64,000 nt of DNA. Origin: Escherichia coli. GTDB lineage: Bacteria > Pseudomonadota > Gammaproteobacteria > Enterobacterales > Enterobacteriaceae. Below are positions 3,233 to 35,394 of this stretch, piece by piece. The notes below the pieces were generated by a model that was not told the DNA's origin, ran no database searches, and saw only the letters and a list, made by a program, of their open reading frames with translations. Position numbers and translations under genes: made by a program. The stretch's first letter is position 1. Each line of letters begins with the position of its first letter. The stretch is taken from the NCBI RefSeq assembly GCF_024223415.1, contig NZ_CP100500.1, one strand, 5' to 3'.

Positions 3233-3304
3233 TAAACAACCCGAAGCCATCCTGCGCCCGTTCGCGGGAGGCTTCCGCACATCTGTAGTCGGGAGGATTG
3301 CGCC

Positions 3305-3673
3305 ATGATTCTGGCTGACGATTTTCTGGAGTACCTGAACAACACCGAGCGCGACCTGTACGCGCGCGTTCTCACCCGTTACGAGAAATACAAACTTTCG
3401 CTGCCAGAACATCAACTCCGCGAAGGCGATATCGACATTGAAGGGCGCTACATCGTCAGGCACCTCATAGCGGGCTACGGCATCTGGCGTGTCACCGGAC
3501 GTGAGCATTCATTGCTGACCATCTGCCAGAGTCCGTCCGGCGTGATAACGGAGATCGTCGCTGATAGTCTGCGACTCACCCATCACAGCGCCACCCCGGA
3601 AGAAACGCTGGCAGAAACCCAGCGTCTGTGTCGCGTCATTGCCAACGCCGCCCTCCGCGCAGACAGGAGGTAA
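3305..3673 (+). CDS. hypothetical prophage early protein (122 aa) immediately upstream of replication gene
   Basis: GGGAGG Shine-Dalgarno; ends 3 nt before gene A start. Confidence 0.5.
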   Translation: MILADDFLEYLNNTERDLYARVLTRYEKYKLSLPEHQLREGDIDIEGRYIVRHLIAGYGIWRVTGREHSLLTICQSPSGVITEIVADSLRLTHHSATPEETLAETQRLCRVIANAALRADRR

Positions 3674-6166: not shown

Positions 6167-6573
6167 ACCGTTATCATTGTGTACTGCCGCGCCACTACTT
6201 CGGTCAGATTATGCGCTCGCGTATTCCGGCGGTCACGCTGCGAAACCTGAGCACGGTACCGCAGCCGGGCGATGAGCTGGAAATCGCCGTAGCAGGCCCT
6301 GACCGTTCAGCCAGCTGCGTGACCGCCGACGTGCTGAACGCCGTGCCCGTAGGTGGTGACTGGCTGGTTGCCATCCGCTTCCGCCAAGACCCGTTCGCAC
6401 CTGAACCGCTCACCCCCGCAGGCCGCATCATGCAGAACTGGCGGGATGAAGGCGCGAAGGCGAACTGCGAAAAACTGATTAACAGGATTGCCACGACAAA
6501 CCGACATGCCGCGCTGGCGCGCCGGATATACCCCGCAAAACCGACACAACCAACAGGAGTAAAACGCCCATGA
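6163..6573 (+). CDS. hypothetical protein coupled to gene A (136 aa)
   Basis: Start ATG overlaps the gene A stop (ATGA); last gene before the cargo island. Confidence 0.5.
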   Translation: MNRYHCVLPRHYFGQIMRSRIPAVTLRNLSTVPQPGDELEIAVAGPDRSASCVTADVLNAVPVGGDWLVAIRFRQDPFAPEPLTPAGRIMQNWRDEGAKANCEKLINRIATTNRHAALARRIYPAKPTQPTGVKRP

Positions 6574-6709
6574 AAAGAATCGCCGGAACCCACAGAGACA
6601 CAAAAAGACACCAAAAGCAGCAAAGACACATTGAATAAACGAAAACTGGTGATATGATTTGTTCAAAGATGTTATGATTTATTCATAAGTAACCTTTCAG
6701 GCTTAAGTT

Positions 6710-12183: not shown

Positions 12184-12248
12184 TTCTCCCCCTCATGTGA
12201 TTCAGGCAGTTTACTCACCCCTTACAGGCCTCCTGCCATGCCCGGTGT

Positions 12249-12266
12249 TGTCGGCATTCGCTTACA
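12249..12266. promoter_or_regulatory. TGT-N12-ACA dyad (Ogr/Delta-type late activator site) between divergent P and O genes
   Basis: TGTcggcattcgcttACA lies between the terminase and scaffold genes, about 55 bp from plausible start sites on both strands. Confidence 0.4.
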
Positions 12267-12337
12267 ACAAACGCACTTTGTCTGTCCCTGCCCCGTTTTG
12301 CCATCATGAGACAAACGATCATCACGAGGGCCCGACA

Positions 12338-19309: not shown

Positions 19310-20206
19310 ATGCCTTCCGTTGACCTGTCACAGTTACCGGAACCGGCCATCATCGCGCAGCCGGATTTTGAGTCCATCCTGGCAGACATTAAAACCATGA
19401 TGGTGAGCTCCTTCCCGGAAGAATACCGCGCCGCCGTCACCCGTGCCCTTACTCTGGAATCCGAGCCATTGAACATCATTTCCCAGGCCATGGCCTTTCG
19501 TGAAATGCTGCTTCGCCAGCGCATCAATGAAGCCGCCCGCGCCTGCATGCTCAGCCACAGCCGGGGCAGTGACCTGGACAATCTGGCCGCCAACAACAAC
19601 ACCCGCCGCCTGGTCATTCATCCGGCCACTGATACCACGGAAGCAGTGATGGAAAGCGACACATCGCTGCGTCTGCGTGCCCAGTCAGCCTGGGACGGCC
19701 TGAGTGTGGCCGGACCGTCCGGCGCGTATGAGTATTTTGCCCGGAGCGCAAGCGGTCTTGTCCGTGATGCGCGCGCCATCAGCCCTTCACCGGCCACAGT
19801 CACCGTCTCCATCCTGTCAGCAGACGGTGACGGCACCGCCGGTGAGGCGCTACTGAACACGGTGCGCACCGCCCTGAATGCCGAGAACGTGCGCCCGGTT
19901 GCCGACCGCCTGACTGTGCAGAGTGCTACCATCGTGAACTGGGTAATGGAAGCGAAGCTGTATTTTTATCCAGGGCCGGAGTCTGAACCCATGCTTGCGG
20001 CCGCTGACGCCGCTTTCCGTGCATGGCTGGCAGACCAGGGCCGTATCGGTCAGGACGTGGCCCTGTCAGCCATCACTGCAGCGCTGCATGTTCACGGTGT
20101 CCAGCGCGTTGAGGTCATAAAACCCACGCAGAACATCACCATCAGTGACACTCAGGCAGCCAGATGTACCACATTCAGCATCAGCGAAGGAGGACGCAAT
20201 GAGTGA
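19310..20206 (+). CDS. baseplate protein (P2 gpJ-like, 298 aa)
   Basis: Position and size. Confidence 0.7.
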   Translation: MPSVDLSQLPEPAIIAQPDFESILADIKTMMVSSFPEEYRAAVTRALTLESEPLNIISQAMAFREMLLRQRINEAARACMLSHSRGSDLDNLAANNNTRRLVIHPATDTTEAVMESDTSLRLRAQSAWDGLSVAGPSGAYEYFARSASGLVRDARAISPSPATVTVSILSADGDGTAGEALLNTVRTALNAENVRPVADRLTVQSATIVNWVMEAKLYFYPGPESEPMLAAADAAFRAWLADQGRIGQDVALSAITAALHVHGVQRVEVIKPTQNITISDTQAARCTTFSISEGGRNE

Positions 20207-23459: not shown

Positions 23460-23948
23460 TCACATCAGATCATTTACGCCGCTTACTGTGGTATTCCAGA
23501 CCGAACTTAACTTCCCTTTCATTCCCGAAAGCATATCAGACACCGGCGACGAGGCCATACTCTCCCGCAAATCCTCATCACAGCGTTCCAGACTGACAGT
23601 GAACTCAATTTTTTTGGCCTTACCGTGGCGGTCAAGTTCGCTTCGCGTTGTGCGGACAGCCGTTATCACATACATGCCGTATATCTGCCCCACACCGTCA
23701 ATCAGCGGCCATGGGCGACCAGTGTAAGCCTGCGTCGTTAAAAGGCTGAGGGAAACCTCACCGCCGGTAATTTCGGGATAAAGCACACCGGACAACGTGA
23801 TCTGGTCGTCACCCGCCCCGATATACTGCCAGCTGGCCGAACGATTGATGCGTTCATTTTTAACGTGGCGCCAGGTTTTATTATGTTGCAGTTGTTGATG
23901 AGGCAGCGTACGCAACTCAAAAACAAACATGCCGTAAATCATCATCAT
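23460..23948 (-). CDS. tail protein U (P2 gpU-like, 162 aa)
   Basis: MMMIYGMFVFELRT...WRH...NRS...TLSGVL...TGG closely resembles the P2 gpU N-terminus. Confidence 0.75.
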   Translation of the reverse strand: MMMIYGMFVFELRTLPHQQLQHNKTWRHVKNERINRSASWQYIGAGDDQITLSGVLYPEITGGEVSLSLLTTQAYTGRPWPLIDGVGQIYGMYVITAVRTTRSELDRHGKAKKIEFTVSLERCDEDLRESMASSPVSDMLSGMKGKLSSVWNTTVSGVNDLM

Positions 23949-23959
23949 GCGAGGTACTC

Positions 23960-26900
23960 CTAATCTCTGTCACGGAAACTACCGACTGTCTGGCGGATAC
24001 GGCGTTCCATTTCCGCACGGACGGCATCACCCACCATTTTTGCCAGTTCGCGCGGGTTTTGCGTGTGAACATCATGCAGGTGAATATGCAGTTCGCCAGT
24101 TAATCCCCATGGTGCCGGATCACTCTGACGCGGTCGGGGCGATGCGGGGGATATGGGCTGGCGTACAGCCTCAACCACCGGACGGGATGTTGCCGTTACG
24201 ACGGGTGTCATTACCGGCGCAATATTGCCGGACACGACCGGTTTAATTACCGGGGAGAGCGTCGGTATAACATCGCCAGCCATAACCGGTTTGATCGCTG
24301 GCGAAATAACCGGAGCAACAGACTCAGCCATGACGGAACTGACAGGCTGAGGCGCTCTCACTATGCCAGCATCGATAACCAGCATGAGCTCGCGTACTGC
24401 CTCAAGGACAGGACGGGATATTGCCGCCATCACTGGTGTCATTAGCGGGGAGAACGTCGGCATGACATCGTGAGTCATAACCGGTTTGATCACCGGCGAA
24501 ACCACCGGCGTAATATTACCGGACAGTACCGGACGGACGACCGGAGGAATAACCGGCACATTATTCACGGACACCACCGGCTTCACGACCGGCGACACGT
24601 TCGCCGTGGTGGATATCAGCGGCGAAACACTGACAGGCGGTGGCGCTGGCAGCGGTGGCAACGAAGGCACACTGACCGACGGCACCTGCGGCAGTCTGAC
24701 AGGTGGCTCACTGACACTACCCGGTAACAGGGAAGCTGCGCGGTTAAAGCGTTCCTCCTTCCACTCACCACGAACGGCCAGCGCTTCCGGCAGGTTTTTA
24801 AAGATAATATCGCCGGGACCAGTGCGTTTTTTCGCCTGTTTCGCCTCATCCAGCAGACCACCGGTGTTATCGACGATTTTGTTCAGGCGGCGCATAGTGC
24901 CGGTATTCTCCCCCGTCAGGGGTGGTTGCCCCCCTTTGGGTTTTTCGCCGTCTTTTTTATCCTCGTCCTTTTTCGGCGGATTAATGACGTTAACATCCGC
25001 CAGAAGCATGGCAGCTTTCTCGTTCAGCAACTCCTTCTGTTTTAGTTCTTCCGCCTTTTTCCGGGCGCGCTCAACCGCCGACGGAATCAGCCCGAGTTTT
25101 TCCAGCACCCGGGTTAATGAGTCAATCAGCAGCGTAACCGGACCGGTCACCAGATTGCTGATAAACTCCCCGACCTTCTGCCCGAACGTACGCCCGGCTT
25201 CCGTGCACTTGTCCAGCTCATCCTTTGTTGTGCTTACCGGCGCGAACAAATCCACGAACCACTGCCACACACGCCCGATTGTCTGCCCGACATACTCAAA
25301 CAGCGGTCCCAGTGGTGCCACAGCCTCGCGCAGTGGCGTAAGCCCCTGCCACAGGCCGGACAAGAACCCGCCCACGACAGCCTTCAGCTGGTCCCAGTGC
25401 CGCCAGATAAGCACTGCCGCACCGACCAGTGTCGCCACCACAAGGCCCACCGGACTTAACAGAAAACCCAGCGCCCCGCCAAGTGCGCCCACCGCACCAC
25501 TCACCATCCCCCACAGTGCGGGCAGACCTGACAGTCTGAGCGCCAGTATTCCGATACCGCGCCCCAGTGAAATCAGTGCGCCGCCAGGTGAAGTGAACGC
25601 AGCCAGCAGACCACCACGCAGCGTACCGAGTAGTCCGCGCACGCCACGAAGCCGGACCGCAAGCCGTCCCGCACCGGTATCAAGACCGGCAAACAGCACA
25701 CGCCAGCCGCCAATACCACTCATCGACCCACCGAGTACGCCGCGCAGCTGCGTCAGTAACGGCAGCGCACGACCGAGGCCGGATGTGCCGGTCAGCAGGG
25801 CAAAACCAAGACGCAGTTTTGCCAGCGGCCCCAGCAACACGCCGGTAGCCAGTGACAGCGCCCCCGTGGCCGCAACCGCAGCCAGCAGTGCACCACCGGC
25901 AATCAGCAGTTGTTTTGTCAGTTCAGGGTGCGCCTGAGCCAGCGCGGTGACTTTCGCAATAACCCGGGTGAACGACTGCGTGACAGAACGCAGCGGCCCG
26001 TCAACGAGGTCAGCGACACGGATACGCAGCCCTTCCCATGCGCTGTTCAGTGATTTCAGGTCGCCGTCCAGGTTGTCCGCCATGATTCTGGCGTTTTCTT
26101 CCAGTTCGCCGTTGGCTGCCTGAATCTCACGCGTCAGGCGCGGCAGGTTTTTTTCGCCTGCCTGTTCAACCAGGCTCATCAGGGAGACATACGCCTCCTG
26201 ACCGGCAATATCTGAAAAGAACGAGACTTTTGCCGCGTTACCGTATTTACGGGTGGCCTGATACAGCTCATACAGGATATCTTCCATCGGGCGCATGTTC
26301 CCGTAAGCATCCTGCGTTTCCACGCCCAGCTGTTTCAGCGCCTTTGCTGCCGCTTTAGGCGGGTTCACAAGGCGGGACAGACTGGAGCGCAGCGCCGTAC
26401 CAGCATCACTGCCACGTATCCCCATCGACCCAAGCAACCCGGTCATGGCTGCGGTCTGTTCAAGAGACAGACCGAGTGAGGCGGCGACCGGTCCCGTATA
26501 TTTCATCGTCTCACCAAGCCCGCGCAGGTCGGTATTGGTGCGGGTGAACGTTGCGGCCAGCGTGTCACCCACGCGGTTCATCTGGTCGGCAGACAACCCG
26601 AACTGTGTAAGGATATTTGAGCTGATATCGGCCGTCTGACCGAGGTCCATGCCGCTGGCCGTTGCCAGATTCAGCACGCCGGGAAGAGCCGCCTGTATCG
26701 CCTGCGGCGTGAACCCCGCCATGGCAAGGAACGCCTGACCGCTGGCAGCATCACCTGCGGTAAACTGCGTTTCGGAGCCGAGTTTAAGCGCCTGTTCGCG
26801 CAGCGCCTTAAACTGCGGACTGTTTTTGTCAATACGGGTCAGCGCCTGGACGCGCGACATCTCCTTACCAAAACTGACCGCCGGTTGCAGGAAACGCCCG

Positions 26901-27517
26901 GCCGCATAGCCACCTGCCGCTGCCGTGCCGACTGCCGTAAATCCACCCGCTTTCAGTTTTCCCGCCATCTCCTGAGCGCGGAAATATTGCTGGCGTGCCT
27001 GCGTGACGCGTGCCAGAGTCTGCCGTTCACGTTCCAGCTGTTCGTTGTATTGCTGTGTTCGCCGTATGGCCTGTTGAATGGTGTTGTCACTGCCGGAAAG
27101 CGCAATACCGTGACGCCGCAGCTCACCACCCAGTTCGCGCATTCGCTGAACTTCACGCGCACGGACCTCATTGAGACGCTCAAGTTTGAGGCTCAAATCG
27201 TTCATCAGCTTTTTCTGTTTGTCAGACAGCACGGTTCCGGCGCGCTGAATTTGCTGAAGTGCGCTTAACTGGCGTTGTGCCCGGGCAATGCCGTTTCCGG
27301 CCTTGTTTGCAGCCTCGCGGGCGCGATCAAATGAACGGGCGTGGCGTTCCAGGTTTTTGATCGCACCCTGCGTTCTCTGTATGGAGTCGCCAAGCTGGCC
27401 CATCATGCGACGGGCGTTTTCGGTGGGACGGGTCAGCCTGTCAACAGCGCTGAAGGCGACCCGTATATCAAGCGTTTTCATGCTCTGCGTTCCCGCTGCG
27501 AAGGGCCGCCCGCTCAC
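23960..27517 (-). CDS. tail tape measure protein (P2 gpT-like, 1185 aa) with C-terminal Pro/Val-rich repeat extension
   Basis: Long helical/Gly-rich ORF between E and U; C-terminal about 200 aa made of PVxxP-type repeats. Confidence 0.85.
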   Translation of the reverse strand: MSGRPFAAGTQSMKTLDIRVAFSAVDRLTRPTENARRMMGQLGDSIQRTQGAIKNLERHARSFDRAREAANKAGNGIARAQRQLSALQQIQRAGTVLSDKQKKLMNDLSLKLERLNEVRAREVQRMRELGGELRRHGIALSGSDNTIQQAIRRTQQYNEQLERERQTLARVTQARQQYFRAQEMAGKLKAGGFTAVGTAAAGGYAAGRFLQPAVSFGKEMSRVQALTRIDKNSPQFKALREQALKLGSETQFTAGDAASGQAFLAMAGFTPQAIQAALPGVLNLATASGMDLGQTADISSNILTQFGLSADQMNRVGDTLAATFTRTNTDLRGLGETMKYTGPVAASLGLSLEQTAAMTGLLGSMGIRGSDAGTALRSSLSRLVNPPKAAAKALKQLGVETQDAYGNMRPMEDILYELYQATRKYGNAAKVSFFSDIAGQEAYVSLMSLVEQAGEKNLPRLTREIQAANGELEENARIMADNLDGDLKSLNSAWEGLRIRVADLVDGPLRSVTQSFTRVIAKVTALAQAHPELTKQLLIAGGALLAAVAATGALSLATGVLLGPLAKLRLGFALLTGTSGLGRALPLLTQLRGVLGGSMSGIGGWRVLFAGLDTGAGRLAVRLRGVRGLLGTLRGGLLAAFTSPGGALISLGRGIGILALRLSGLPALWGMVSGAVGALGGALGFLLSPVGLVVATLVGAAVLIWRHWDQLKAVVGGFLSGLWQGLTPLREAVAPLGPLFEYVGQTIGRVWQWFVDLFAPVSTTKDELDKCTEAGRTFGQKVGEFISNLVTGPVTLLIDSLTRVLEKLGLIPSAVERARKKAEELKQKELLNEKAAMLLADVNVINPPKKDEDKKDGEKPKGGQPPLTGENTGTMRRLNKIVDNTGGLLDEAKQAKKRTGPGDIIFKNLPEALAVRGEWKEERFNRAASLLPGSVSEPPVRLPQVPSVSVPSLPPLPAPPPVSVSPLISTTANVSPVVKPVVSVNNVPVIPPVVRPVLSGNITPVVSPVIKPVMTHDVMPTFSPLMTPVMAAISRPVLEAVRELMLVIDAGIVRAPQPVSSVMAESVAPVISPAIKPVMAGDVIPTLSPVIKPVVSGNIAPVMTPVVTATSRPVVEAVRQPISPASPRPRQSDPAPWGLTGELHIHLHDVHTQNPRELAKMVGDAVRAEMERRIRQTVGSFRDRD

Positions 27518-27631
27518 GCCAGGCGACCACCTCGCCGGGATCCATCAGGAAGATTTCAGCGGGAGACCAGTTGAAAATAACGGCGATATCCGCCACAAAG
27601 TCTTCAATATGCTCAAAGGGCACGACGGTTA

Positions 27632-27994
27632 TCAGCCTGCCGTCGCCGCCACGCTCTTCCCGCCAGAGTCCTGACCGGCCAAAAAATTAACCGCCACCCC
27701 GCACAGCTGAATAAAATCAGCGGACCCCATGCGCTTAAGCAGAACCTCGTCCAGTCGCGGCGAAGTGACGCGCGGGAGTAACTCAAACATCGCGTCCGTT
27801 TTCATGTTCAGCACGTCAAGCAGTGACAGCCCGCGCAGTGAACCGGCCTGCTGTACAGCAGGCGTGATTTCCACATACGTGATTTTTTTGTTACCGAGCA
27901 CAAGGGGCGTTTTCAGCGTCACGCCGCGCTCACTGGTCACGTCCGCCGCATCAGCACCGTCAGTAACAGGGGCAACAACCGGATTTTCTTTCAT
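27632..27994 (-). CDS. tail assembly chaperone (P2 gpE-like); E' presumably made by -1 frameshift
   Basis: Position between tail tube and tape measure genes; TTTTTTG heptamer near the 3' end. Confidence 0.65.
   Translation of the reverse strand: MKENPVVAPVTDGADAADVTSERGVTLKTPLVLGNKKITYVEITPAVQQAGSLRGLSLLDVLNMKTDAMFELLPRVTSPRLDEVLLKRMGSADFIQLCGVAVNFLAGQDSGGKSVAATAG
27680..27686 (-). other. slippery heptamer T_TTT_TTG for programmed -1 frameshift (E/E' chaperone)
   Basis: Reverse complement of CAAAAAA at 27680-27686 lies in-frame at ...NFLAGQ... near the end of gpE. Confidence 0.55.
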
Positions 27995-28044: not shown

Positions 28045-28563
28045 TTAACCACCAAGACCAATCGCCGAGCGCACGCGGTCCGGGAAGACGCTTTTGCCGT
28101 CCTTGCGTTCGATGTGGTTCAGTAAATCAATCTCCAGCACCGGACGGTCGTTAATGCTGAGTTTGTAGTAGGTACTTTTGACCGCATAGGTGTGAGACGT
28201 GACCTCACCCTGTTTGGCCTCCCCGGTATCAATTTCCGTCACGCGACCGCGAAGCTCAATCTCGTACAGGTCACTCTGTTCTTCATCGTTGTAGTACTCA
28301 CCGACAAAGCGCAGCAGCGTACCGTCAATCGTTCCGCCGTACTTGAGGAACAGTTCGCGGGTCGGCCCGCCCATGGTGAAACTCGCATCCAGCGCGCCGT
28401 CATCCAGGCCAAGGTCGATATTTACTGCACCGGCCATACCACCACCGCGATAGGCTTCCGTTTTACGGGTCAGTTTGGGGGCCGTGAAGCCGGTCACTCT
28501 GCCAATCTGGTTCACCCCGTCAGTAAACAGCGTGAACACCCTGAGATTTTTTGGTACGGCCAT
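28045..28563 (-). CDS. tail tube protein (P2 gpFII-like, 172 aa)
   Basis: Position and size downstream of sheath gene. Confidence 0.75.
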   Translation of the reverse strand: MAVPKNLRVFTLFTDGVNQIGRVTGFTAPKLTRKTEAYRGGGMAGAVNIDLGLDDGALDASFTMGGPTRELFLKYGGTIDGTLLRFVGEYYNDEEQSDLYEIELRGRVTEIDTGEAKQGEVTSHTYAVKSTYYKLSINDRPVLEIDLLNHIERKDGKSVFPDRVRSAIGLGG

Positions 28564-29846
28564 TAAGCACCTCCAAGCGTCGCAAATGCAGGACCAAAGA
28601 ATTCATCAGTAAACGTCTGGTAAAGTTCCATATCCTCAAGCGGCGGAACGGGCGTGTACTTGTAGCGGATACGCACGCGTCCCTGACGAAGTTCCGTGGT
28701 GCTGTTATCCACCACGTCATACCAGCACTCCGCACCAACGAGACGTCCTGACGTAACCAGCGCATCCAGTTTTGCGCGAATTGCGCTTAACACGTCTTTC
28801 ACATTAGCAGGGGTCAGCGGGGCATCAATCGTTTCAAACTGCGCTTCCGCAACAGAATCAGCCAGCACCTGAGCGGTTCGCGTGTACACCTCAAAGATAT
28901 ACGCCTTCGTTTCCGGCGTACGGTTGCCCCAGAAGCGGAAACCGTTACGGCGAATGATGGTGGTGATTTCCTTGTTGTTGAGATTGTTGGCATCGCTGTC
29001 TTCGGACTGAAGGGACCAGAACACCGGGCTGGAAATACCCAGCACATTTCTTACCGGCACGTTGGACAGCGATTTATGCCAGCCCTGTTCGTGGTCAATA
29101 CGTGCACGTAAACCGCAGGCGTACGCCGCAGCCGGGAAGACCTCATTAGCGCCGGATTTCGGGTTATGGGCGATGAAGTCAGGCCAGAGCAGCATAAGTT
29201 CGCGCTCGTTAAATCTGGCGCGGTAGCTGATTGCATCAGCGGGCTTCTTGCAGTTGTGACAGCCCGCGTAGACAAATGCGCGAAGTTTTTCTGCAATTAC
29301 ACACAGGGATTTTGTGACAGCTTCAGTATCCAGTCCGGGAGCTGCGATGATGCGCGGACGGTAACCGATGGCATCATCCTGTTCAGCTATCAGAAGTGCA
29401 TACATACCGGTATAATTACCGTCGCCATCCGTGCCACCAATGACATACTGGTCCTGCGTTTTGTGTGGGTATACAGGATGTGCATCTTCAGACTCATCAA
29501 TACCAAAAAATGCCCTGTCTTCAGGATCCAGATGACCGAATGATGTAACTCCTGTATCCGGGGCGCCCTGAGAACTGGCATCAGGAACGCGCACCACAAT
29601 CACCTTCGTGCTCACCTGGTCGGCGACAGCCTTAAGCGATTTGTAAAGCGTCCCCTTTGTGCCGGCCTTACCCAGCACATCACTGACGCGGGTCAGCAGT
29701 GTGGGTTTGTTCAGCGGGAACAGAGTTTCATCCGCGTCATCTGCCGTAGCCACAATACCAATAACACTGGAATCCACATCATTAATGGCGGTGGCAAGGC
29801 CGGTACTTTCCCTTACGCGCGCACCATGAAAGCGTGTTTCACTCAT
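28563..29846 (-). CDS. tail sheath protein (P2 gpFI-like; start at MSETRFHGARV)
   Basis: N-terminal region resembles the P2 FI N-terminus (HG..V.E...G......A.VG...TA.DAD...FPLNKP). Confidence 0.8.
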   Translation of the reverse strand: MSETRFHGARVRESTGLATAINDVDSSVIGIVATADDADETLFPLNKPTLLTRVSDVLGKAGTKGTLYKSLKAVADQVSTKVIVVRVPDASSQGAPDTGVTSFGHLDPEDRAFFGIDESEDAHPVYPHKTQDQYVIGGTDGDGNYTGMYALLIAEQDDAIGYRPRIIAAPGLDTEAVTKSLCVIAEKLRAFVYAGCHNCKKPADAISYRARFNERELMLLWPDFIAHNPKSGANEVFPAAAYACGLRARIDHEQGWHKSLSNVPVRNVLGISSPVFWSLQSEDSDANNLNNKEITTIIRRNGFRFWGNRTPETKAYIFEVYTRTAQVLADSVAEAQFETIDAPLTPANVKDVLSAIRAKLDALVTSGRLVGAECWYDVVDNSTTELRQGRVRIRYKYTPVPPLEDMELYQTFTDEFFGPAFATLGGA

Positions 29847-29922
29847 ATGTTTCACCCTTGTCTGGCTGGTTGATTTTGCGTAATCATTACCCACACACGC
29901 GGTAATCTCACCCCTTTGATGT

Positions 29923-29940
29923 TGTCTCCTGACAGCGACA
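29923..29940. promoter_or_regulatory. TGT-N12-ACA dyad (candidate Ogr site) between divergent FI and D genes
   Basis: TGTctcctgacagcgACA lies about 55 bp from plausible start sites for both FI (minus) and D (plus). Confidence 0.4.
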
Positions 29941-30007
29941 ACAAAACAGCCATTCAACGCCGCTACGGTGCATGAAACCATTACAGAACGCACCAGGAGA
30001 GAACACC

Positions 30008-31099
30008 ATGAAAGAGCTGTCAGTTACCGTTCCGTCACCGGATATCGACATCACCATCAACAACAACACACTGGCAAACCTCACAGAGCGACTCATGACG
30101 CTGTCACTGACCGACAACCGGGGCTTTGAGGCGGACCGCGTCACCCTGACCATTGACGACGCGGACGGGCAGCTTCAGCTGCCACAGCGCGGCGCACGCC
30201 TGAACGTGATGATTGGCTGGCGCGGGGAGGCGCTGGTTAACAAGGGTGTCTACATCGTTGATGAAGTGACGTGGGAAGGCCCGCCGGACAAACTGACCAT
30301 CACCGCCAGCAGCGCCGATTTTCGCGAAGAGTTCAACGTGAAGCGTGAAGTCTCCTGGCACGACGTGACGGTAAAACAGGTTGTGTCAGCCATCGCGCAC
30401 CGCTACGGCCTGAAAGCACAGATAAGCGATATCCTCATGGATATCGAAATTGACCACGCAGACCAGACCGAAGAGAGTGATATATCCTTCCTGACCCGCA
30501 TGGCTGAAATGCTGGGTGCGATTGCCACCGTAAAAAACGGCAGCCTGTTATTCATTCTGCCGGGTGGCGGAACCGGGCCGGACGGAAAAGCCCTGCCTTC
30601 GTTCGCCATTACCCGCAGCAGCGGCGACAGTCACCGCTTTCGCATTGCTGACCGTGATGCGTATACGGGGGTCCGGGCGCACTGGCTCGATCTGAAGTTC
30701 GGGCAAAAGAAAAAAGTGAACGTGAAGCGACGCAGGGAAGCCGGGAAACAGAAACAGGAGAAGAGCAGCAGCCGGGAAGGTGATTACATGGAAGGCGCGG
30801 AAGGTAACGTCTACGTTCTGCGCAGGACTTACCAGAATGAAGAAACCGCACGACGTGCAGCAGCTGCAAAGTGGCAGGAACTACAGCGGGGCGCGGCATC
30901 ATTCTCCATCACGCTGGCGCGCGGTCGTGCCGACCTGTACCCTGAAATGCACGGCAGGGTAACAGGTTTTAAAAGCGAGGTGGACAATCAGGACTGGATT
31001 ATTGCCAGGGTGGAGCACAGCATAGATGAAAGCGGCTTCACCACACAACTGGAGCTGGAAGCGAAAATCCCCGAATGGATAGCAGATTCAGGCGGATAA
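30008..31099 (+). CDS. tail/late control protein D (P2 gpD-like, 363 aa)
   Basis: AGGAGA Shine-Dalgarno; size and position just before ogr. Confidence 0.75.
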   Translation: MKELSVTVPSPDIDITINNNTLANLTERLMTLSLTDNRGFEADRVTLTIDDADGQLQLPQRGARLNVMIGWRGEALVNKGVYIVDEVTWEGPPDKLTITASSADFREEFNVKREVSWHDVTVKQVVSAIAHRYGLKAQISDILMDIEIDHADQTEESDISFLTRMAEMLGAIATVKNGSLLFILPGGGTGPDGKALPSFAITRSSGDSHRFRIADRDAYTGVRAHWLDLKFGQKKKVNVKRRREAGKQKQEKSSSREGDYMEGAEGNVYVLRRTYQNEETARRAAAAKWQELQRGAASFSITLARGRADLYPEMHGRVTGFKSEVDNQDWIIARVEHSIDESGFTTQLELEAKIPEWIADSGG

Positions 31100-31142: not shown

Positions 31143-31394
31143 ATGTTCCGTTGTCCCCTGTGCGGTGCATCCGCACGTATCCGCACCAGTCGCAATGAAA
31201 ATGATTCAGGCACAGTTCGCCTGAAGTACTACCAGTGCAATAACCTCGAATGCGGGATCGGCTTTACCACACTGGAGGGTTTTAACAAATTCACATCAAA
31301 ACGCGCCCCGTCGCCGCAGGGTACAGAGCGGATACCGTGGGAAGATTTTCCGGGATCTCACAGGGGGAATGCTCAGATGAATCTTGATATTTAA
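31143..31394 (+). CDS. ogr: Ogr/Delta-family zinc-finger late transcription activator
   Basis: MFRCPLCGASARIRTSR...YYQCNNLECGIGF carries the CxxC...CxxC finger and N-terminal similarity to P2 Ogr. Confidence 0.85.
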   Translation: MFRCPLCGASARIRTSRNENDSGTVRLKYYQCNNLECGIGFTTLEGFNKFTSKRAPSPQGTERIPWEDFPGSHRGNAQMNLDI

Positions 31395-31399
31395 GAACA

Positions 31400-32405
31400 A
31401 TAATCAGGTTGAGAGGACATCATAAGGCAAGTAGATTAACGGCAGATACTTTCCCGCAACCACGGGCAAGTATTTAATTATCCATGATGAAATATGACCT
31501 AAATTGTTTTTTGCCCGCCGGAAAGCGGGCATTTTTTTATTCTTTTGTGGTTATGGGGTCATCAGGAACCACGTGCAGATTATATTTTTGTTTTTTTGGC
31601 GTTCCTCCGGCAGCAACGAGTTCATCAATAAGACACTGACACGCCTGAACATCCCGGGCATGTCTTAGTTTCACCTTTATTGATTTAACCTTATCCTCAC
31701 CGGAGGAGAAATGCAGTTCAATCTCAATATCGTTTCTTCGGAACAATCTCATACGCCCCCCTGAATATATCAGAAATGCTAGTATCGAAAAATGAGAAAA
31801 CAGTTAGACAGGAGAAACATATTAACACAAATCATTTATACCTATAGATGAAATTATAATTTCATTCATGAATATGATAGATAACTATATTGTGAACAAA
31901 ATGAAAAATGGCTAAATTAAAAATGGGCATGGAGGAATGCCTCGTAATCAGTAATACATGATCCATACTTCCTTGTTTTGCCCGCCGGAAAGCGGGCATT
32001 TTTTTGGCGGTTACCATCGCCTCACCTTCCTGGTTCACACAAAGCAACCCTGATTTTCCATGAAAACTTCAGGGTTGAGCCAAAAGCACAAAGACAGTAG
32101 ATTAACCAAGGGTACCCGCCACCTGCCAACAGGAACGGTATCCAGTACGTATTAATGACTGACAATTCACATTGCTGTTTTGCCCGCCAGAAGGTGGGCA
32201 TTTTTTTGGCAGTTATCATGGACGCACCTTCATGACACATATTAAGCAGACCTGATTTTTCCATGAAAAATTCATGGTTGAGACAAAAGCACAAAAACAG
32301 TAGATTAACCACGGGTGCCTGCCACCTGACAACAGGAAGGGGTGTCCATTATCCATGATATACAAACGAAAAGTCTTGTCTTTTGCCCGCCGTTGCGCGG
32401 GCTTT
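31400..32405 (+). repeat. array of four related modules, each a promoter-like TTGAGA/TTGTGA-N17-TAGATT/TAAATT plus an intrinsic terminator (GCCCGCC...GCGGGC + T-run)
   Basis: Terminator hairpins at about 31512, 31978, 32181 and 32384; units 32000-32200 and 32200-32405 are about 200-bp paralogues sharing sequence with the unit just after ogr. Confidence 0.6.
31537..31752 (-). CDS. hypothetical small protein (71 aa) inside the repeat/att region
   Basis: ORF with weak G-rich Shine-Dalgarno; may be a remnant. Confidence 0.25.
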   Translation of the reverse strand: MRLFRRNDIEIELHFSSGEDKVKSIKVKLRHARDVQACQCLIDELVAAGGTPKKQKYNLHVVPDDPITTKE

Positions 32406-32889: not shown

Positions 32890-35394
32890 ATGTCACAAAC
32901 TATCGACCTGACCCTGGACGGCCTGTCCTGCGGTCACTGCGTTAAACGCGTGAAAGAAAGTCTCGAACAGCGCCCGGATGTGGAACAAGCGGATGTGTCT
33001 ATCACTGAAGCGCACGTTACCGGGACTGCCAGTGCAGAACAGCTGATCGAAACCATCAAACAAGCGGGTTATGACGCATCTGTAAGCCACCCAAAGGCTA
33101 AACCGCTGGCGGAGTCATCAATCCCGTCGGAAGCACTGACAGCGGTTTCTGAGGCGCTTCCGGCAGCGACCGCCGATGACGATGACAGCCAGCAGTTGCT
33201 GCTGAGCGGCATGAGCTGCGCCAGCTGTGTCACCCGCGTACAAAATGCGTTGCAAAGCGTACCGGGCGTCACTCAGGCACGGGTAAACCTGGCGGAGCGT
33301 ACTGCGCTGGTGATGGGCAGTGCCTCCCCACAAGATTTAGTGCAGGCGGTGGAAAAAGCGGGCTACGGTGCGGAAGCGATTGAAGATGACGCGAAACGCC
33401 GCGAGCGCCAGCAAGAAACCGCCGTCGCTACGATGAAGCGCTTCCGCTGGCAGGCAATTGTTGCATTGGCTGTGGGTATCCCGGTAATGGTCTGGGGGAT
33501 GATCGGCGATAACATGATGGTCACCGCTGACAACCGCAGCCTGTGGTTGGTTATCGGCCTGATAACCCTGGCAGTGATGGTTTTCGCCGGCGGCCATTTT
33601 TACCGCAGTGCATGGAAAAGCCTGCTGAACGGTGCAGCGACGATGGATACGCTGGTGGCGCTGGGTACTGGCGTGGCGTGGCTCTATTCGATGAGCGTCA
33701 ACCTGTGGCCGCAATGGTTCCCGATGGAAGCGCGACATCTTTATTACGAAGCCAGCGCGATGATTATCGGTCTGATTAATCTCGGCCATATGCTGGAAGC
33801 GCGCGCACGTCAGCGTTCTTCAAAGGCGCTGGAGAAATTACTCGATTTAACTCCGCCGACGGCGCGCCTGGTTACTGACGAAGGTGAAAAAAGCGTGCCG
33901 CTGGCGGAAGTTCAGCCAGGCATGCTACTGCGCCTGACGACGGGCGACCGCGTGCCAGTAGATGGCGAGATTACCCAGGGCGAAGCATGGCTGGATGAAG
34001 CGATGCTGACGGGCGAACCTATTCCGCAGCAAAAAGGCGAAGGCGATAGCGTCCATGCCGGTACAGTGGTACAGGACGGTAGCGTGCTGTTTCGCGCCAG
34101 TGCGGTTGGTAGCCATACCACGCTATCAAGGATCATTCGTATGGTGCGCCAGGCCCAGAGCAGTAAGCCAGAAATCGGTCAGCTGGCGGATAAAATCTCA
34201 GCCGTATTTGTGCCGGTAGTAGTGGTTATTGCGCTTGTCAGTGCGGCAATCTGGTATTTCTTTGGTCCGGCACCGCAGATTGTCTATACCCTGGTGATTG
34301 CCACCACGGTGCTGATTATTGCCTGCCCGTGTGCGCTGGGGCTGGCGACGCCGATGTCGATTATTTCCGGCGTCGGGCGGGCGGCTGAGTTTGGCGTGCT
34401 GGTGCGGGACGCCGACGCGCTGCAACGCGCCAGTACACTCGATACCGTCGTGTTCGATAAAACCGGGACGCTGACCGAAGGGAAGCCGCAGGTTGTCGCA
34501 GTGAAAACATTTGCTGATTTTGACGAAGCGCAGGCGCTGCGTCTGGCGGCGGCACTGGAACAAGGTTCCAGCCATCCGCTGGCACGGGCGATCCTCGATA
34601 AAGCAAGCGATATGCAGCTGCCGCAGGTCAACGGTTTCCGCACATTGCGCGGGCTGGGCGTGAGCGGTGAAGCTGAAGGTCATGCGTTATTGCTGGGCAA
34701 TCAGGCGCTGTTAAATGACCAGCAAGTTGATACTAAAGCGATTGAAGCAGATATTTCAGCTCAGGCATCGCAAGGGGCAACGCCTGTGCTGCTGGCGGTT
34801 GACGGGAAAGCGGTAGCCCTGCTGGCTGTACGCGATCCGTTGCGTAGTGATAGCGTGGCGGCGCTGCAACGTCTGCATAAAGCGGGATATCGTCTGGTGA
34901 TGTTGACCGGGGATAACCCAACCACCGCCAATGCGATCGCCAAAGAAGCAGGGATTGATGAGGTGATCGCCGGGGTGCTGCCGGACGGTAAAGCCGAAGC
35001 GATTAAACGCCTGCAAAGTGAAGGACGTCAGGTGGCAATGGTGGGCGACGGCATTAACGACGCGCCAGCGCTGGCTCAGGCGGATGTCGGCATTGCGATG
35101 GGTGGCGGCAGTGATGTTGCTATTGAAACCGCGGCGATTACCCTGATGCGCCATAGCCTGATGGGTGTTGCGGATGCGCTCGCTATTTCCCGCGCAACGC
35201 TGCGCAACATGAAGCAGAACCTGCTCGGCGCGTTTATCTACAACAGTATCGGTATTCCGGTTGCCGCCGGTATTTTGTGGCCGTTTACTGGAACACTGCT
35301 TAACCCGGTGGTTGCCGGAGCGGCAATGGCGCTCTCGTCGATTACCGTAGTGAGTAACGCCAACCGGTTGCTGCGGTTTAAACCGAAGGAATAA
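32890..35394 (+). CDS. copA: Cu(I)-translocating P-type ATPase
   Basis: 834-aa ORF with two N-terminal CxxC metal-binding motifs (GLSCGHC, GMSCASC), CPC and DKTGT motifs. Confidence 0.95.

Follow-up and report, generated by a model that had tools for sequence, protein, structure and literature searches.

Does the tail assembly chaperone gene of an Escherichia coli prophage give rise to two proteins, one that ends at the gene's own stop codon and another that continues, after a −1 shift of the reading frame, into the next gene? The question concerns gene E, which lies at 27632..27994 on the minus strand of the 64,000-nucleotide stretch of DNA that we analyzed (hereafter, the window). A sequence-only reading had noted a slippery heptamer, T_TTT_TTG, near the 3′ end of this gene and had interpreted it as a conserved programmed frameshift site. 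Judging from its sequence, the window represents an E. coli prophage of the P2 family, P88-like and belonging to the Peduoviridae. Our analysis indicates that the heptamer is very probably a site of programmed −1 ribosomal frameshifting in the tail chaperone gene of this prophage.

Gene E is part of a tail operon on the minus strand. The operon's first gene is FI, which encodes the tail sheath (28563..29846; Pfam PF04984, PF22671, and PF17482). It is followed by FII, which encodes the tail tube and lies directly 5′ of E (28045..28563; a full-length match to the profile PF04985, E = 4e-44). Then come E, the −1-frame ORF that we call E′, and gene T, which encodes the tape measure protein (23960..27481; PF10145 or PhageMin_Tail, E = 3e-58). 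The operon ends with a gene for a gpU-like tail protein (23460..23948; PHROG 76, "tail protein", E = 3e-71). (We place the start of gene T at the ATG at 27481, which gives 1173 amino acids; PGAP picks the same start in E. coli GF60.) The plus strand carries gene D (29972/30008..31099) and ogr (31143..31394), followed by copA, as well as the baseplate genes V, W, J, and I and the tail fiber and fiber-assembly genes, which extend up to 23389. The ORFs for the sheath, the tube, E, T, U, D, the baseplate, and the fiber genes are all full-length, so the tail module is complete in the window.

The sequence-only reading described the tail module as inverted. The FI-FII-E-T-U block does run opposite to D and ogr, and compared to P2, the inversion affects this block but neither D nor ogr. 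But P88 has exactly the same layout, so by gene order this is the normal arrangement of P88-like phages rather than a rearrangement that sets this prophage apart. The sequence-only reading also took the slippery site as support for an intact and functional tail module. Intactness is indeed supported, by the full-length ORFs and by dyads of the late-promoter type, but the site on its own does not prove that the module works; it is one more hint that the module could still function. As to the dyads, the window has two exact instances of TGTTGT-N12-ACAACA, and both are in divergent late-gene intergenic regions: one between FI and D (29920..29943) and one between the terminase-side and the capsid-side genes (12246..12269). 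Both fit the consensus for P2 late promoters, TGT-N12-ACA (PMC3931495). The dyad at 29920..29943 is probably the Ogr-dependent late promoter element for the E/E′ operon, and each of the two probably serves both of the divergent operons that flank it. The dyads are consistent with an expressible late module.

In a set of 5,426 complete E. coli genomes, 29 have the 701-nt region around the site with an identity of at least 95%. Among named phages, the closest are P88-like (Xuanwuvirus, Peduoviridae), with 77-79% DNA identity. Not all copies of this prophage in other E. coli strains are intact: some have an IS21-family insertion or a pseudogenized T. For instance, E. coli GF60 (NZ_CP172185.1; locus L001, 2689..4996) has this type of prophage in several copies. 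In one of them, an IS21-family element (ISSso4 istA/istB) lies within the sheath gene, which is intact in the window, and in both of the copies examined, T is flagged by PGAP as a partial pseudogene. The tape measure protein also varies in length, with 1173 amino acids in the window versus 935 in P88 and about 815 in P2. The 3′ part of gene T (23960..24700, minus strand) encodes a C-terminal region that is rich in proline and valine, and a gapless direct-repeat search identified diverged periodic repeats of 48 nt (16 amino acids) there. This part of the gene also contains a duplication of about 195-231 nt with 72-80% identity. (Tandem Repeats Finder reported no repeats in the tape measure gene.) The D-ogr end of the prophage adjoins copA (32890..35394, plus strand), and a strong terminator-like hairpin lies 3′ of ogr (31512..31531).

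We then examined the slippery site. The plus strand at 27680..27686 reads CAAAAAA, which is TTTTTTG on the minus strand. The register is the canonical X_XXY_YYZ: the local codons in the ORF at 27994..27632 are GCG GTT AAT TTT TTG GCC, and the AAT TTT TTG within them encodes Asn103-Phe104-Leu105 of E. The heptamer is thus in frame close to the gene's 3′ end, as had been reported, with 52 nt or 17 codons between it and the 0-frame TGA (27634..27632). As a bare string, the heptamer is not rare, with 27 instances of TTTTTTG on the two strands of the 64-kb window versus 14 expected. In-frame heptamers of the form X_XXY_YYZ occur at 32 of the 16,182 codon positions in the window's 43 long ORFs (0.2%), and just one of these is T_TTT_TTG. 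For a stretch of 17 codons, the number expected by chance is 0.03 for any slippery heptamer and 0.001 for T_TTT_TTG. It is the position and the frame, not the bare heptamer, that make a chance occurrence unlikely.

The −1 frame has a TAA immediately 5′ of the heptamer (27687..27689, minus strand). Because this stop directly precedes it, the heptamer is the first position at which a −1 shift would be productive. The window of productive shifts (27686..27635, or 52 nt) starts at the heptamer, and T_TTT_TTG is the sole canonical site within it. Beyond the heptamer, an immediate stop in the −1 frame would have spoken against frameshifting. Instead, after the slip, the −1 frame restarts at GGC and stays open for 70 codons, up to a TGA at 27470..27468. 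This extension, E′ (27468..27680, minus strand, with the heptamer's G as its first base), has a 14-nt overlap with the beginning of gene T.

Both halves of the predicted product are related to proteins of P2. The product of the 0-frame gene E has 120 amino acids and is similar to PHROG 103 ("tail protein", E = 4e-31) and to gpE of P2 (35% identity over 88 amino acids, E = 2e-14 by BLASTP), but it has no match to any Pfam or NCBIfam family at E ≤ 0.01. E′ matches Pfam PF06528 (Phage_P2_GpE; 48.1 bits, with a cutoff of 23) and PHROG 1756 (E = 1e-32), and it is 49% identical to E′ of P2 (E = 3e-16). (Neither E′ nor the E+E′ fusion has a match in NCBIfam, though PGAP calls E′ "GpE family".) The predicted fusion has 175 amino acids, with residues 1-105 from the 0 frame and residues 106-175 from the −1 frame. 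To compare it to E+E′ from P2, we assembled the latter from the P2 record (NC_001895), in which the −1 site is annotated at 19685, within GGT TTT TTG. The two fusions are 36% identical (E = 2e-28), and the alignment is continuous over the junction, with the Phe-Leu of the slip sites superposed. Among solved structures, we found no sequence relative of the fusion. By homology, then, the 0-frame gene is the counterpart of P2 gpE and the −1 extension is the counterpart of P2 E′. The likeness to P2 E/E′ and to λ G/GT that had been proposed is borne out both by these homologies to P2 and by the gene order of tube, E, E′, and tape measure.

In the mechanism that we propose, most ribosomes would finish gene E at its own stop codon, so that the 120-amino-acid chaperone would be the major product. 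A minority would pause while tRNA-Phe occupies the P site (on UUU) and tRNA-Leu the A site (on UUG). The two tRNAs would then slip back by one base, in tandem, onto UUU UUU, and the next codon would be GGC in the −1 frame. Such a tandem slip predicts the junction ...N-F-L-G-R and the tryptic peptide MGSADFIQLCGVAVNFLGR. Shifted ribosomes would translate 70 more codons and terminate 14 nt inside the tape measure gene, which would yield the 175-amino-acid E+E′ (about 19 kDa) as a minor product. As in P2 (E/E+E′) and λ (G/GT), the N-terminal part that the two products share may bind the tape measure protein, and the E′ domain may recruit subunits of the tail tube. By the same analogy, the frameshift would keep the long product at a fixed and low ratio to the short one. 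We infer the ribosomal shifting at this site, its efficiency, and the roles of the chaperones from the sequence and from these analogies.

If the frameshift is used, the slip site should be recognizable in related phages, and we analyzed 184 related viral loci from three scans in a uniform way. (A first scan of viral sequences with a single protein gave just 2 near-identical loci, so we used an alignment-based search. A scan with P2 gpE gave only copies that were 99-100% identical, which increased the numbers but added little diversity. P0046 and P0042 were left out of the alignment because of frame errors.) An in-frame slippery heptamer occupies the equivalent position of the alignment in 182 of the 184 loci. 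Wherever the downstream sequence is complete and undamaged, there is a −1 ORF of 57-71 codons that bears the motif W-R/K-E-R/K. The position of the site is kept over four lineages, even though their E proteins can be as little as 35% identical.

What varies at this fixed position is the type of heptamer, as can be seen in the slip regions of loci L007, L008, L085, and L098 and of the window (27680..27692). The P2 group has GGT TTT TTG, which contains T_TTT_TTG (80 loci). The Salmonella-type loci have either GTC CCT TTT TTG, with both C_CCT_TTT and T_TTT_TTG (12 loci), or GTG CCT TTT TTG, with T_TTT_TTG only (8 loci). Most of the P88-like loci (68) have GTA AAT TTT ATG, in which the only heptamer is A_AAT_TTT, one codon upstream, and a minority (10) have GTA AAT TTT TTG, in which A_AAT_TTT and T_TTT_TTG overlap. 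The window's own lineage, which comprises the window and 2 near-identical contigs (also picked up by the Salmonella-type scan), has GTT AAT TTT TTG and hence T_TTT_TTG only. Its valine codon is GTT instead of GTA; this difference is synonymous, but it abolishes A_AAT_TTT and creates the −1-frame TAA. All of the variants share the core NNT TTT, and a two-tRNA slippery site is completed on either side of it. So, the description of the site as conserved is correct for its position but not for the exact heptamer, as P88-like phages mostly have A_AAT_TTT and lack TTTTTTG. The three heptamers T_TTT_TTG, A_AAT_TTT, and C_CCT_TTT illustrate that selection acts on slipperiness and not on one specific sequence.

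The two exceptions among the 184 loci are L097 and L099. L099 has multiple frame errors. In L097 (IMGVR_UViG_2565956773_000017), a run of seven T's replaces the run of six at about 1495-1505 in the locus (CCTTTTTTTG), and E and E′ are in a single 0-frame ORF. This is either a homopolymer error from sequencing or assembly or a natural mutant that makes the fusion constitutively.

The comparison to relatives also bears on which frame is under selection downstream of the heptamer. In the region that encodes only E′, the substitutions relative to P88-like relatives are at positions 1/2/3 of the −1-frame codons in numbers of about 7-10/3-4/16-17. In the 49-nt overlap of E and E′, the substitutions are mostly at third positions of E′ codons, which are second positions of E codons. 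Because substitutions in the overlap are concentrated there, it is the −1 frame that is under constraint, starting at the heptamer.

This is relevant to an alternative explanation, which is that E′ is translated by itself, as a 51-amino-acid protein from an in-frame GTG at 27623, and that there is no frameshift and the heptamer is incidental. Current annotations favor this alternative: RefSeq/PGAP describes E′ as a separate CDS of 51 amino acids that starts at this GTG (27468..27623 in the window, minus strand; "GpE family phage tail protein"), with matching CDSs at 6478..6633 in locus L001 and 3266..3421 in locus L002. The P88 record similarly has E′ as a separate "tail protein", and the −1 fusion is annotated in neither the P88 nor the RefSeq records. 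Nevertheless, we consider independent translation to be improbable, for several reasons. First, the 20 nt upstream of the GTG (ACGGCAGGCTGATAACCGTC) do not include a Shine-Dalgarno sequence at a usable distance, and nothing similar to one lies 5-10 nt upstream. Second, the stretch of −1-frame residues from the heptamer to the GTG (GLWREERxGDGxxIT) is kept in both P88-like and Salmonella-type phages, while the overlapping tail of the 0-frame E varies, and the substitutions there are at third positions of E′ codons. Initiation at the GTG is disfavored because the −1 frame is already constrained upstream of it. Third, the position of the slippery site is kept across lineages. Fourth, E′ of P2 overlaps T and is reported to have no ribosome binding site of its own (PMC3091744; PMC3931495) and to be produced as part of a fusion (PMC3931495). 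The annotation of E′ as a separate CDS looks like a systematic gap for this family of prophages. The practical value of our analysis is mostly in annotation, as the meaningful product is the predicted 175-amino-acid fusion and not a free-standing CDS of 51 amino acids.

A second alternative accepts the frameshift but involves one tRNA instead of two: tRNA-Phe would slip alone on U_UUU (within AAU UUU), and the junction would be ...N-F-F-G-R, with the peptide MGSADFIQLCGVAVNFFGR, instead of ...N-F-L-G-R. In keeping with this, NNT TTT is the one element that is shared by every lineage's variant, and U_UU.U ranks third among the shift-prone tetramers in E. coli (PMC4066793). However, tetramers are barely shifty without a strong stimulator (PMC4066793), and we found none here. 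Furthermore, every lineage has a full heptamer (A_AAT_TTT, C_CCT_TTT, or T_TTT_TTG), which suggests selection for the re-pairing of two tRNAs. We see a slip by a single tRNA as unlikely, and we prefer the tandem slip.

Third, RNA polymerase might slip on the run of six T's (A's on the other strand) and add one base, which would bring E′ in frame. A homopolymer run is present, and the run of seven T's in L097 does fuse E and E′, so indels there either occur or are mis-called. But efficient transcriptional slippage typically requires runs of about 8-9 or more bases, and a run of six is short. Also, most of the close relatives have A3T4 (GTA AAT TTT ATG) instead of this run, yet have the same arrangement of E and E′, which fits with the re-pairing of tRNAs and not with a stuttering polymerase. 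Transcriptional slippage is therefore very unlikely.

Finally, it is scarcely credible that the heptamer arose by chance in a decaying prophage and that the −1 ORF is a relic: the window does have 27 copies of TTTTTTG, and copies of this prophage in some other strains have IS insertions or pseudogenes, but only 0.001 to 0.03 in-frame sites are expected in the shift window, the position is conserved over four lineages, the −1 frame has the signature of coding sequence, and the window's tail ORFs are all intact. Taken together, the conservation and the pattern of selection disfavor all four of these alternatives to a tandem slip at the heptamer.

How efficient might this frameshift be? We did not find a conserved stem-loop or pseudoknot 5-9 nt 3′ of the heptamer by single-sequence folding (z = 0.14, not significant), by a consensus fold of 7 representatives of the lineages (−2.45 kcal/mol, with no meaningful covariation), or in Rfam, which has no match at the site. 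On the 5′ side, 7 nt separate the heptamer from a Shine-Dalgarno-like GGGGTGG (27694..27700, minus strand), whose predicted duplex with the anti-Shine-Dalgarno has an energy of −9.2 kcal/mol. P2 has a counterpart, AAGGTGG, 4 nt upstream of its heptamer. This element is absent from the P88-like and Salmonella-type relatives, including the Salmonella-type lineage that has only T_TTT_TTG. We set aside an upstream stimulator of this kind as a general feature of the family, as most lineages lack it. In the window, GGGGTGG may modulate shifting in a lineage-specific way, or its presence may be a coincidence of the codons for Cys-Gly-Val-Ala. As for the heptamer itself, the motifs that are efficient in E. 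coli include H_HH.U_UU.Y (and thus A_AA.U_UU.U and C_CC.U_UU.U), but not U_UU.U_UU.G (Sharma et al. 2014, PMC4066793). Because there is no conserved stimulator and because U_UU.U_UU.G is outside of the efficient motifs, the efficiency at the window's site is probably low. A low efficiency suits a product that is needed in small amounts.

A more speculative idea, which we view as doubtful, is that the slip signal is tuned differently in each lineage. Most P88-like relatives have A_AAU_UUU, of the efficient class. The window's lineage keeps only the weaker U_UUU_UUG, and like P2 it has a Shine-Dalgarno-like element a short distance upstream (GGGGUGG in the window), which might compensate. If so, then the family would be a natural series on how the ratio of the chaperones is set and reset, by switching between heptamers and by an upstream stimulator that binds rRNA.

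How does this site compare to systems that are already known? P2 is the obvious reference. Its −1 frameshift and its operon, FI-FII-E-E′-T-U-D, are attributed to Christie et al. (2002) in PMC3091744 and PMC3931495. P2 uses TTTTTTG to produce E of 91 amino acids and E+E′ of 142 amino acids, and it has no hairpin (PMC3091744; PMC3931495). The heptamer and its register are identical in the window, and the Phe-Leu residues at the site align. Both halves of the fusion are homologous to those of P2, E′ overlaps the start of T, there is no downstream hairpin, and the gene is located between those for the tube and the tape measure. On the other hand, identity between the proteins is only 35-49%. E is longer in the window (120 versus 91 amino acids, owing to a longer N terminus and a longer 0-frame tail), as is the fusion (175 versus 142 amino acids). 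The distance from the heptamer to the stop codon of E is 52 nt in the window versus 25 nt in P2, and E′ and T overlap by 14 nt versus 8 nt. Also, the FI-U block of the window has the opposite orientation to D and ogr, and the window's 0-frame E lacks a Pfam match.

The P88-like phages share the gene order, with D and ogr divergent; their E proteins are about 65% identical to the window's; and their −1 ORFs have 70-71 codons and are highly similar in sequence. But they mostly use A_AAT_TTT one codon upstream, without TTTTTTG, and a minority have both heptamers, whereas the window has only T_TTT_TTG.

The slippery sequence of λ is G_GGA_AAG, and λ is a siphovirus; in both respects it differs from the system in the window. 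What the two have in common is that, between the genes for the major tail protein and the tape measure, a −1 shift connects two overlapping ORFs (PMC5009743). In λ, the reported ratio of the two products is about 30:1 (PMC5009743), and that article credits the work on G/GT to Levin et al. (1993) and to Xu, Hendrix and Duda (2004, 2013, 2014). The chaperones of P2 and λ are reported to have no amino acid similarity (PMC3931495).

The same E/E+E′ arrangement is found in P2-like phages of Burkholderia, Stenotrophomonas, and Xanthomonas (KS5, KS14, KL3, and Smp131), although these have other hosts and their sequences are distant. Neither P2 nor the P2-like phages of Burkholderia have a downstream hairpin (PMC3091744), and the window agrees with them. 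The window's site differs from stimulated −1 shifts of the dnaX or IS3 type in that we found no conserved downstream structure. An upstream Shine-Dalgarno-like element, the other feature of that type, is present in the window and in P2 but in none of the other lineages.

Overall, the site is of an ordinary and well-understood kind. Variation in the slippery sequence of P2-like phages was already published, with the T-run sites T6G, T7G, and T7C reported as conserved (PMC3091744, PMC3931495), and the principle that slipperiness matters more than the exact sequence is already in the literature. Our comparison extends this variation slightly, by A_AAT_TTT and C_CCT_TTT at the same position. All of the in silico features that gave a clear outcome agree with what is seen in P2, and on this sequence evidence, the window's site belongs to the P2 E/E+E′ family of frameshift sites.
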